A DNA stretch of 14,230 nucleotides from a virus. Lineage: Duplodnaviria; Heunggongvirae; Uroviricota; Caudoviricetes. Shown here in pieces: positions 6,042 through 9,000 of this stretch. Made by a program: the position numbers. The DNA lies in IMG/VR virus record IMGVR_UViG_2690316076_000003. The stretch is one strand, 5' to 3'. Positions within the stretch are counted from its first letter, which is position 1. Each line of letters starts with the position of its first letter.

Positions 6042-9000
6042 TGATCAGGATTGCGGCGCTACTCTCAATACTCTTAACTACCAGCGCCAATTCTGAATGC
6101 TGGATTGTCACAAACCTGCACGGGTACGGGGCAATGAATGGCGATCGTTACGAGTTTACAAAAGACAGCACGGAAGATTCCGTTTTCAACGTAACAATAA
6201 ATGGCGATAAATCATCAGTTTATGAATCAGTTTCTGGCGTCTATCCAGAGATGAAATACACTGCTTTGTCATCGAACACTATGGTAGGAGAATACCAGTC
6301 TGGAGGAGGCATAACCGTTGAAACTTGGTCAATCACTACAGACAAAAAAGCTCTTTACTCCAAAGTAATGAACATCCCAGGTATGCAACAACTTACATCA
6401 ACCAAATCCTTTGTTGGTGATGTAGTCGGAACCTGCAATCAGTAATCCCCACCTCAATCTCGATAACAAAAAAACAAACTATTTTCCGTTTAAAAACAAT
6501 GGAGTTTGTTTTTCACGCCCCTTTTTACAATGTTTCTTGTTTACAACATACAATCTTCCTTGTAATTTTAAGCCATCAGCAGGACGCACTGACCACCATT
6601 GAAGGTGAGGCTCTTAAAAATTAAGCCCTGAAGAAGGGCAGCATTCAAAGCAGAAGGCTTTGGTGTGTGTGATACGAAACGAAGCATTGGCCGGAAGTGC
6701 GAATCCGGATTAGCTGCCAATGTGCCATTGCGGGGTGTTTTCGTTCAGGACTACGACTCCCACACACAACCAAAGCTAACTGACAGGAGAATCCAGATGG
6801 ATGCACAAACACGCCGCCGCGAACGTCGCGCAGAGAAACAGGCTCAATGGAAAGCAGCAAATCCCCTGTTGGTTGGGGTAAGCGCTAAACCAGTTAACCG
6901 CCCTATTCTCTCGCTGAATCGCAAACCGAAATCACGAGTAGAAAGCGCACTGAATCCGATAGACCTTACGGTGCTGGCTGAATACCACGAACAGATTGAA
7001 AGCAACCTGCAACGTATTGAGCGCAAGAATCATCGAGTTTGGTATAGCAAGCCAGGTGAGTTCGGTATAACTTGTCAAGGAAGACAAAAGGTTAAAGGGG
7101 AATCCATTCCATTGGCATGAGGTACGTAATGAAGAAGATTGATTACAAGTCCATACCAAAACCAATAGACTCAGCATCAGAGCGAAAAAAACACAAAAAA
7201 GAGGCTGAAAAATTAGCAAATTATATCAGTTTTATTAGAAACAATGCTCACGGCGATGGCGACAAGAAGTTGCTTTCAGATGCTCGGACCCAAGCGTTCG
7301 GTATACTTCGTAAGCAGATGCAATATCGTCTTCATCCTGGCTACATAATTGAAATTCGCCCTACTGAAAGACAATTGTTCTTATTAAACTCTGTCTTTGA
7401 CTTTGTAAACGTAGTTGGAGATCTTATCGACAGGTCTGTAGATAAGGATCCTGATACAAATAGTTTTCTTCTAACAAATAAAGAATACTTATATGGTAAA
7501 TTCGGTATAAACGGATGGCAAAAATATGTACGCTTCTTACGTGCATTCGTTGATGCGTATAAAAATTCCGACATGATTTATACATATTTGCCTGGTGGTG
7601 ATAATTGTACGCTTTCGGCAGACAATAGAATATTCATACCTGTACTTGGTCTTGGGCTGATTAATGCAGTAAATGAAAAAGATGTTATAATTGTTAAGCA
7701 GTGGCGAAAATATGAGGGATATAGATATCTGCCATGCTTTGATATATTAAAAATACAGAATAAATTCTATGTAAAAATTAAATATAAAGAAGATATTTTC
7801 TTCCTCAGAAAAAACATAGATCTTTTACAAGAACTTTCTGGTACAATAGATGTCATCTTAGGTTCTAGGTTTATAAAAGAACTGAAAGAAAGCAGGTCTT
7901 TCTCTCGTGTAGAGATAAGCGAGTCAGAGTTATGGGGTATATCAAATAATCCTGTAAACCACGCTCACCAACGAAACCCAAACAAAAAGTGGTCATAACC
8001 CGCTCAGGCGGATTTCATTTTCACGCAAACAACAGAATAAACACAGCGCTGTGTATTCATTCCAACGAGTGAATACACGGAGCAATGTCGCTCGTAACTA
8101 AACAGGAGCCGACTTGTTCTGATTATTGGAAATCTTCTTTGCCCTCCAAGATGAGGGCGATTTTTTATCTGTGAGGATATGAACAGATGTCAAACATCAA
8201 AAAATACATCATTGATTACGACTGGAAAGCATCAATAGAAATTGAAATCGACCATGACGTAATGACAGAGGAAAAACTTCACCAGATTAATAATTTCTGG
8301 TCAGACTCTGAATACCGACTCAATAAACACGGCTCTGTATTAAATGCTGTATTAATCATGCTGGCGCAACATGCTCTGCTTATAGCAATTTCAAGCGACT
8401 TAAATGCATATGGTGTTGTGTGTGAGTTCGACTGGAATGATGGAAATGGTCAGGAAGGATGGCCTCCAATGGATGGTAGTGAAGGAATAAGAATTACCGA
8501 TATCGATACATCAGGAATATTTGATTCAGATGATATGACTATCAAGGCCGCCTGAGCGCGGCGTTACCGCATACCAATTACGCTTCACTCGAGGCGTTTT
8601 TCGTTATGTATAAATAAGGAGCACACCATGCAATATGCCATTGCAGGGTGGCCTGTTGCTGGCTGCCCTTCCGAATCTTTACTTGAACGAATCACCCGTA
8701 AATTACGTGACGGATGGAAACGCCTTATCGACATACTTAATCAGCCAGGAGTCCCAAAAAATGGATCAAACAATTATGGCTATCCAGACTAAATTCACTA
8801 TCGCCACTTTTATTGGCGATGAAAAGATGTTTCGTGAGGCCGTCGACGCTTATAAAAAATGGATATTAATACTGAAACTGAGATCAAGCAAAAGCATTCA
8901 CTAACCCCCTTTCCTGTTTTCCTAATCAGCCCGGCATTTCGCGGGCGATATTTTCACAGCTATTTCAGGAGTTCGGCCATGAACGCTTATTACATTCAGG

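Follow-up and report, generated by a model that had tools for sequence, protein, structure and literature searches.

The early-left operon of the phage-434-type lambdoid prophage recorded as IMG/VR IMGVR_UViG_2690316076_000003 carries, just behind the antiterminator gene N, an AT-rich gene (7129-7998, + strand; 289 codons and TAA) whose product ends in a peptide identical to the C-terminus of Nun, the transcription-arrest protein of phage HK022. The window, by which we mean the whole stretch of 14,230 nucleotides that was analysed and to which positions refer unless another locus is named, comprises the immunity and early-left region of this prophage, with the pL direction on the + strand. The gene is CPT_434_48 of phage 434 (UMO75312.1; RefSeq WP_001299183.1), to which it is 99.9% identical (OL657226, OL657227). 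From sequence comparison, we see about an even chance that its product is a Nun-type blocker of RNA polymerase translocation fitted with a new targeting domain, and made with N as an immediate-early product of pL. The protein is predicted to have three parts: a basic N-terminal helical hairpin, a core of about 150 residues resembling the nucleic-acid-recognising WED and REC domains of TnpB and Cas12 and lacking RuvC, and a flexible linker that ends in the Nun peptide.

The tail consists of residues 276-289 (VNHAHQRNPNKKWS; 7954-7995, + strand) and forms the extreme C-terminus of the protein. When aligned with PDB 6ALG chain N (6alg_N), all 14 residues match HK022 Nun 96-109 exactly, N97, H98, H100, R102, K106, K107 and W108 among them, and the Nun-like profile PHROG 5632 also matches the protein (E 7e-5). 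In the Escherichia coli elongation complex the last 23 residues of Nun thread into the active-site cleft, and by cryo-electron microscopy only residues 87-109 are ordered, a segment that holds all known arrest determinants (PMC5386594). N97, H98 and H100 touch the beta' rudder as well as RNA and template DNA, R102 pairs with the C-terminal carboxylate, and K106, K107 and W108 occupy a pocket by the hybrid and the downstream DNA; N103A behaved as wild type and was the no-effect control in the structure paper (PMC5386594). T-Nun, a form shortened by 13 C-terminal residues, is inactive and fails to bind RNA polymerase (PMC5386594, PMC4496710), R94A mainly weakens binding, and the Nun-resistant rpoC alleles are beta' R322H, D264G and D329G (PMC5386594). 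At high concentration Nun arrests complexes that have no nut site (dissociation constant ~300 nM), and its overproduction is toxic (PMC5386594, PMC4496710). A preliminary description of this DNA had called the protein unknown and had recognised no catalytic motif in it. The latter falls short, as the C-terminal 14 residues are the exact HK022 Nun arrest peptide, and the former falls in part, since for the tail there is homology to a characterised phage protein. The depositors of CPT_434_48 had labelled it "Nun C-terminal peptide-containing protein" in GenBank, and RefSeq lists it as hypothetical; the 434 genome announcement is silent on the gene, and the literature searched has nothing on it or on long Nun-like proteins. 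The tail had thus already been noticed by the 434 annotators, and the constraint on it, the TnpB-like body, the linkage to N and the BREX cousins considered below are undescribed in that literature.

The pattern of conservation in the tail mirrors the functional map of Nun. Across six family members, whose identities range from 68% down to 36%, the initial V and the equivalents of N97, H98, A99, H100, R102, K106, K107 and W108 are invariant, and the only positions that vary are Q101, N103, P104, N105 and S109. Synonymous sites in the divergent tails are saturated (pS 0.84-1.14), and change at nonsynonymous sites (pN) is 0.09-0.15 in the tail versus 0.20-0.46 in the body. Since the functional residues are invariant although the synonymous sites are saturated, the tail is unlikely to be a mere recombination scar. 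At the DNA level, the 434 copy shares a mosaic module with nun: homology with HK75 starts at codon V276, amounts to 95.7% identity at the 3' end of nun, and runs through the stop codon for a further ~190 nucleotides to the terminator. The likeness to the Nun of HK022 and HK75 (P18683) therefore includes the 14-residue C-terminus, the DNA that encodes it and the terminator region downstream, and both genes are pL-proximal in a lambdoid early-left operon.

A degenerate DNA pattern for the tail was found in more than 120 viral contigs, where its carriers are canonical Nun, many proteins of 79-123 residues with differing Arg-rich N-termini, and the family of about 290 residues to which the window protein belongs; among the open reading frames (ORFs) of viral contigs with the pattern, there was no large carrier besides this family. 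In GTDB representatives the tail occurs on small proteins only (in Escherichia, Shimwellia, Proteus, Providencia and Photorhabdus), the rest being chance matches. With the same peptide on dozens of small proteins that have different Arg-rich N-termini, the Nun tail is a portable effector peptide. Among the viral contigs that we number L011-L130, several 88-residue proteins consist of an arginine-rich motif (ARM) of the lambda N type (MDAQARRREKRKEKQEEWK...) joined to the Nun tail, and it seems that Nun-like factors form a varied family directed at different types of nut. Locus L006 has an N gene and both forms of tail-bearing protein, long and short, a pairing which argues that the targets of the two forms differ; the short one is a Nun-like ORF of 102 residues (L006 9037-9345, + strand; GRRRALRMQQRR ... 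DAIHKVVNHAHQRRPNKKWS), 160 nucleotides downstream of the long Nun-tailed gene.

The body to which this tail is attached differs from anything in Nun, which has 109 residues and is largely disordered, whereas the 289-residue protein has a folded body of about 250 residues in an AlphaFold2 (AF2) model. The model was built on a 14-sequence alignment, and the best of five had a mean predicted local distance difference test (pLDDT) of 75.6 and a predicted template modelling score of 0.73, the other four lying at 57-67. In this model and the alignments the N-terminal extension (residues 1-65; 7129-7323, + strand) forms two long helices, 16-38 and 43-65, the first with a Lys/Arg-rich stretch at 16-28 (SERKKHKKEAEK) that is SRRRKxxKK or TRRAARK in relatives. 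The core (residues ~70-220; 7336-7788, + strand) has a split-WED/REC topology made up of a strand at 71-77, four helices within 80-145, and a beta region at 152-218 with one flanking helix, and its conserved motifs are P78-x3-Q82-x3-L-x3-F, FLLxNK and C160-S-x-S163. Residues 223-275 (7795-7953, + strand) comprise a long helix, 223-258, with a conserved ESRSFSRVEISES motif, and then a low-confidence linker. The pLDDT is below 50 from residue 252, and residues 252-289 are probably disordered; the tail and linker would as such be accessible.

Fold comparison placed the body close to TnpB. Pfam, NCBIfam and PADLOC gave no match for the protein or its distant relatives, no anti-restriction family was matched in these or in PHROG, and a PDB sequence search with the family profile returned nothing relevant. 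The top Foldseek match in the PDB was ISDra2 TnpB (probability 0.96) and in BFVD a mimivirus TnpB-like "transposase" (probability 0.98), in both cases with weak E-values, and the best structural matches in the two databases were TnpB, Cas12n/f/p, TranC and Fanzor. The order of elements in the core, namely a first WED strand, a helical REC insertion, and the remaining WED barrel with its flanking helix, is that of the N-terminal half of TnpB. The body is therefore modelled as having a TnpB-like WED-REC fold, with no claim of homology to TnpB. A precedent exists in TnpB derivatives that became immobile and were recruited to control transcription (PMC10691335). The split-WED and helical-REC topology is the likeness to TnpB and Cas12 proteins, including TldR and Cas12m/k, from which the window protein differs in having no significant sequence similarity and in lacking the RuvC and zinc-finger half altogether, rather than carrying it in an inactivated form: after the beta region the model has only the helix and disordered tail, Pfam OrfB does not match, and at ~120 residues less than a minimal TnpB there is no room for RuvC. 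The gene also differs from tnpB in being without transposon ends, TnpA or a conserved 3' RNA structure. An omega-RNA-type guide is unsupported, as RNAalifold on the 3' regions of seven divergent loci gave only a terminator hairpin and Rfam gave nothing; at L003, the spacer between the long gene and the next is only 45 nucleotides. No boxB-binding ARM of the Nun or N type could be recognised in the N-terminus with its Lys/Arg-rich stretch: alignment by hhalign with the N-termini of small Nun-like proteins was collinear and not significant (P 0.009, probability 4.6%), and the aromatic residue expected to stack on boxB is Y in 434 and either C or H in its relatives, and so is not conserved.

The gene lies in an operon of familiar order: cI (5412-6044), a hex-like ORF, oL/pL, nutL, N, the gene itself, a terminator, ea10, cIII, kil, gam, bet, exo, xis and int. 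The boxB hairpin of nutL (GCCCTGAAGAAGGGC; 6625-6639, + strand), downstream of pL and annotated as the nutL stem-loop in 434 (L001 6508-6524), marks the early-left transcript that bears N and the gene, and a terminator scan reports it merely as a minus-strand terminator-like site (6639-6625). N (6797-7120, + strand; Pfam N36 E 1.8e-26, PHROG 271, and the 434 annotation) has a lambda-type ARM, MDAQTRRRERR, and ends at TGA 7118-7120. The frame of the next gene is open from ATG 7117, which overlaps this stop codon as ATGA, to TAA 7996-7998, giving 293 residues. We place the start at the in-frame ATG 7129, 8 nucleotides past the N stop, at which the homologues all begin, on which the 434 annotation and the RefSeq PGAP annotation agree, and which fits with the PHROG 12139 profile beginning at residue 5 of the 293-residue ORF. 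A Shine-Dalgarno GAGG (7119-7122, + strand) lies 6 nucleotides before ATG 7129 and overlaps the N stop, and a ribosome-binding site is annotated in the same place in OL657226. The preliminary description had given an ORF of 289 residues at 7117-7998, with its own GAGG and a start overlapping or abutting the N stop; the ORF is intact and the signals are as described, with the correction that 289 residues need ATG 7129, as 7117 gives 293. The ORF was also correctly described as strongly AT-rich and its product as Lys-rich: GC content is 34.6% (30% at third codon positions), as against 48.8% in N, 52% in bet/exo and 44.1% in the whole window, and Lys makes up 10.4% of residues.

Two terminators follow. 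Directly after the stop codon is a hairpin, CCGC-TCAG-GCGG, with a T-rich run (7999-8023, + strand), which RNAalifold on seven loci and DNA alignment reveal as a weakened copy of an intrinsic terminator. All seven divergent loci (the window, L003, L005, L006, L084, L101 and L128) have such a terminator, C(C/T)CGC-N4-GCGGG followed by TTTTTTATTGCC, right behind the stop, and its T-run is degenerate in the 434-type copy. A strong intrinsic terminator (8139-8168, + strand), annotated in 434 (L001 8023-8052), closes the unit of N and the gene upstream of ea10, and falls within the segment, from 7953, that the window shares with HK75 downstream of nun. From pL through the end of the ORF the terminator scan gives no + strand site, which makes co-transcription with N plausible, and the gene comes second and last in a terminator-bounded immediate-early unit, pL-nutL-N. 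Upstream of the gene a promoter scan gave no site, a negative that is uninformative because the published PNun in HK75 escapes the scan too. Expression with N from pL, as had been proposed, is the simplest expectation given the tight linkage to N and no predicted terminator between.

The linkage to N is widespread in the family. In the window, L005, L006, L084, L101 and L128 the gene lies within a few nucleotides of the stop codon of an N-like gene, and the N proteins concerned are very different. L003 and L076 have no N, and the homologue there is the first gene after the repressor and pL, which is exactly the position of nun. The leader of about 200 nucleotides between pL and the long gene in L003 (2801-3110) is GC-rich and hairpin-prone, has no Rfam match, and could be a put-like antitermination RNA. 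The window protein differs from Nun in this respect too, as its gene accompanies and follows N in a phage that uses lambda-type nut, whereas Nun replaces N in a put-dependent phage. The gene had been assigned to the position of lambda ral, to which it was said to be unrelated, and both statements are borne out. The N flank, the terminator flank (window 8027-8186) or both are common to 330 phage records, and among the matches listed, annotated records that match both flanks include Sf6 and Chlobot, which have ral in the slot. The lambda record matches both flanks and is unannotated; ral is, as we take to be established, the occupant of the N-to-terminator slot in lambda. Only 434 and 434B, among 50,697 phage records, carry the window gene. 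It shares with lambda ral the slot before the terminator and ea10 and the early transcription from pL, and differs in having no sequence relationship (there is no ral match in Pfam or PHROG) and in being much larger than Ral, which has 66 residues.

The ORF is not a chance one, since 117 of 5426 complete E. coli genomes contain it, always on the chromosome, and since it evolves among close variants at a ratio of nonsynonymous to synonymous change (dN/dS) of ~0.25, and has homologues down to 36% identity. These homologues (68, 47, 46, 41 and 36% identical) form only about six clusters in collections of 5.8 and 15 billion proteins, and no member of the family was found among GTDB species representatives. 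Disruption in related prophages, which had been named as grounds to abandon the gene, is not the rule, with 83 of the 117 E. coli copies full length. A pseudogene reading of the truncated copies was rejected: the one examined arose by an IS1-mediated deletion within a decayed prophage, and the majority of copies are intact. The gene is missing from the phage-database matches for lambda imm434 hybrids (whether OM418626 is in that collection was not checked), and this absence may explain why decades of imm434 work never met it.

If the tail acts as in Nun, it would enter the elongation complex, and the body would replace the boxB-binding ARM of Nun, raising the local concentration of the peptide at particular elongation complexes. 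Such a tether would bind structured RNA, a DNA motif or a factor associated with the complex, and without the equivalents of H93 and R94 the tail should depend on it even more. Within minutes of infection or induction, the protein would be produced alongside N. Complexes of the phage itself that N has modified would be spared, the thread-like C-terminus of N already filling the hybrid cavity, which N is known to traverse (PMC9378689; PMC3526286). The victims would be unmodified complexes on competing phage or host genes, and the outcome would be either that a co-infecting or resident competitor is excluded or that the host is selectively shut off. The host-takeover role put forward as one option in the preliminary description is compatible with an RNA-polymerase-arrest peptide.

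Several observations weigh against this proposal. An arrest factor in the first transcript of a phage that depends on processive transcription is paradoxical, and protection of the phage's complexes by N is our inference only. The residues of Nun that contact upstream DNA, H93 and R94, are absent, the window protein having ISNNP where Nun has VMHRV; this H-[RK] pair (the 'DAMH[RK]VV' motif) is kept by all the small tail-bearing proteins and never by the long family. The tail and 3' flank are ~96% identical to nun at the DNA level, so that recent recombination was involved in the 434 copy. For the body, no Foldseek match reaches E 0.001 and the TnpB-like call comes from an AF2 model on a shallow alignment; comparison of the family with TnpB N-termini by hhalign was not significant (probability 2.8%), and aligned only the topologically equivalent residues 71-96 with TnpB 6-31. 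Lastly, RNAalifold on the seven loci and Rfam yielded no conserved RNA structure that might be a guide or a cis target.

The rival that survives best, and which we nevertheless think unlikely, is that the protein is a superinfection exclusion factor expressed in the lysogen, as is HK022 Nun, from a weak constitutive promoter or by read-through from pRM, with the body recognising the incoming phage. The nun gene of HK022 also lies downstream of pL, yet is reportedly transcribed in lysogens from its own constitutive promoter, and the failure of our scan to see PNun in HK75 leaves room for a similar promoter here. The nun position of the gene in L003 and L076, the lack of any predicted + strand terminator between cI/hex and N, and the integrity of the gene in a prophage that has lost replication genes, as expected if the host benefits, are all consistent with such a role. 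Harder to reconcile with it are the mere 8 nucleotides between the N stop and the start and the lack of a promoter-like site ahead of the gene in the scan; the tight linkage to N in six phages points to co-expression with an N that acts in the lytic phase, and we would expect repressor bound at oL to impede read-through from pRM. The earlier preference for counter-defence over a lysogen-protecting defence is not established, as Nun is itself a lysogen exclusion factor. Nor is the silence in the repressed lysogen that had been expected of the gene, given the promoter of nun.

Counter-defence has to be weighed together with the distant relatives of the core. A full profile search with HMMER retrieved 24 proteins, with relatives of the core at E 1e-16 to 8e-4. 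About 18 of the 24 share with the family only the core and the "S-x-S-[FY]-[SA]-R-V-[ED]" helix, at 17-27% identity, and these distant relatives end in a different conserved peptide, GGLPSLGK[RK]R. In one clade (P0027, P0031 and P0033) the gene is fixed between brxC and pglX of the BREX defence system, PADLOC confirming BrxA, BrxB, BrxC and PglX around it. The BREX-embedded proteins have 276-288 residues (L007 8001-8831, L131 7001-7867 and L133 7001-7867) and are followed by two uncharacterised genes and one of the HSP70 type; among PADLOC models there is none for these proteins. The other relatives (P0010-P0030) stand alone, and one of them has NYN, RelA/SpoT and PLD/MZB/helicase genes around it in a defence island. 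An independent AF2 model of P0033 reproduced the core topology (pLDDT 85-91 there) with a disordered tail. The BREX and stand-alone proteins thus resemble the window protein in a homologous core of the same topology, the helix and a disordered C-terminal peptide, and differ in sequence, in the tail, in lacking the N-terminal helical hairpin and in belonging to cellular defence loci, whereas the window gene is itself in a prophage early operon and not in a brxA-brxB-brxC-pglX operon.

On this basis the protein could be a BREX-component-like domain that serves as a decoy or modulator of BREX-like or restriction systems, its tail being secondary, and we consider this somewhat less likely than exclusion by the lysogen. 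Immediate-early expression would suit it, as would a slot that in Sf6 and Chlobot is filled by ral, and core relatives include the clade always found between brxC and pglX and the member of a defence island. The BREX-type relatives are only 17-20% identical, however, and have another tail; neither PADLOC nor Pfam matches the protein; and counter-defence gives no reason for constraint within the phage protein being strongest on the Nun arrest residues. An anti-restriction role finds no direct support from our tests, the sole hint being the occurrence of distant core relatives as BREX-operon genes.

Less probable again is self-regulation, in which the protein would be an antagonist of N or a timer that brakes the phage's own early transcription at pL- or pR-distal sites, so tuning the choice between lysis and lysogeny or the early-late switch. 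The gene's obligatory linkage to N across divergent phages, within a single unit bounded by terminators, would fit with this, as would the competition of Nun and N for the same complexes (PMC5386594, PMC9378689). The gene is found without any N in L003 and L076, however, most lambdoid phages manage without it (two of the 330 phage records with the flanks carry it), and nun mutants of HK022 grow and lysogenise normally, so that the known tail protein is not self-regulatory (PMC4496710). That the tail is a non-functional hitch-hiker, left by a mosaic joint 46 nucleotides inside the ORF with function only in the globular body, is the least likely of the rivals given the constraint on the tail and in our view very improbable: the homology with HK75 does begin abruptly at codon 276 and end ~190 nucleotides beyond the stop, as is typical of lambdoid mosaic joints, but relatives of 36-68% identity keep every functional tail residue despite differing at most synonymous sites, the tail is the least variable part of the protein, and in the body's distant relatives, too, the C-terminus is a conserved disordered peptide, which suggests a terminal effector peptide by design.

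Alongside the preferred reading of a Nun-type blocker with a new targeting domain stands a bolder one, which we hold to be doubtful. Here a WED-REC module derived from TnpB and stripped of its nuclease would read nucleic acids by sequence or structure and deliver a portable polymerase-jamming peptide, making a targeted transcription roadblock that combines pieces of Nun and of a transposon nuclease, and the BREX cousins would likewise be a 'reader plus plug'. They would then be an unrecognised BREX component that engages polymerase or another enzyme through its disordered C-terminal peptide.

Other features of the window concern the prophage as a whole. In an ORF on the - strand at 3991-4647, the N-terminal domain of the replication protein O (Pfam Phage_rep_O) is joined to the final ~91 residues of the NinI phosphatase (89% identical to 434 NinI), with Q next; P, ren and most nin genes are therefore deleted, and the prophage cannot replicate. 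Rz and tail-fibre-like fragments further left suggest more decay. At the left end, an AT-rich ORF of at least 292 residues (1-~890, - strand), which runs off the window, belongs to the SseK/NleB family of type III effectors, arginine GlcNAc-transferases (PF24688, E 1.6e-158), and looks like prophage cargo of a host of the enteropathogenic or enterohaemorrhagic E. coli type. Two further AT-rich ORFs (36-39% GC) at 2375-3133 and 11909-12511, both on the - strand and opposite to the flanking phage genes, encode multi-pass membrane-like proteins that match the uncharacterised PHROG families 1521 and 1416, with no Pfam or PADLOC match, and are moron-like insertions. The lambda cIII thermoregulator element (Rfam RF01804, 88.5 bits; 8615-8673, + strand) is as expected for the region.

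Nun has so far been treated as a one-off, a small protein with an unusually narrow specificity for lambda, and its arrest peptide proves to be a portable module. In the classic laboratory phage 434 this peptide is joined to a large folded domain with a predicted TnpB-like fold and is probably co-transcribed with N. Should the peptide act as in Nun, phages would possess a second way to aim a polymerase plug at chosen complexes, and the coexistence of N-modified complexes with an arrest factor could be tested with existing Nun and N reagents. The relatives that are fixed between brxC and pglX would, if this is true, provide a new handle on the mechanism of BREX.

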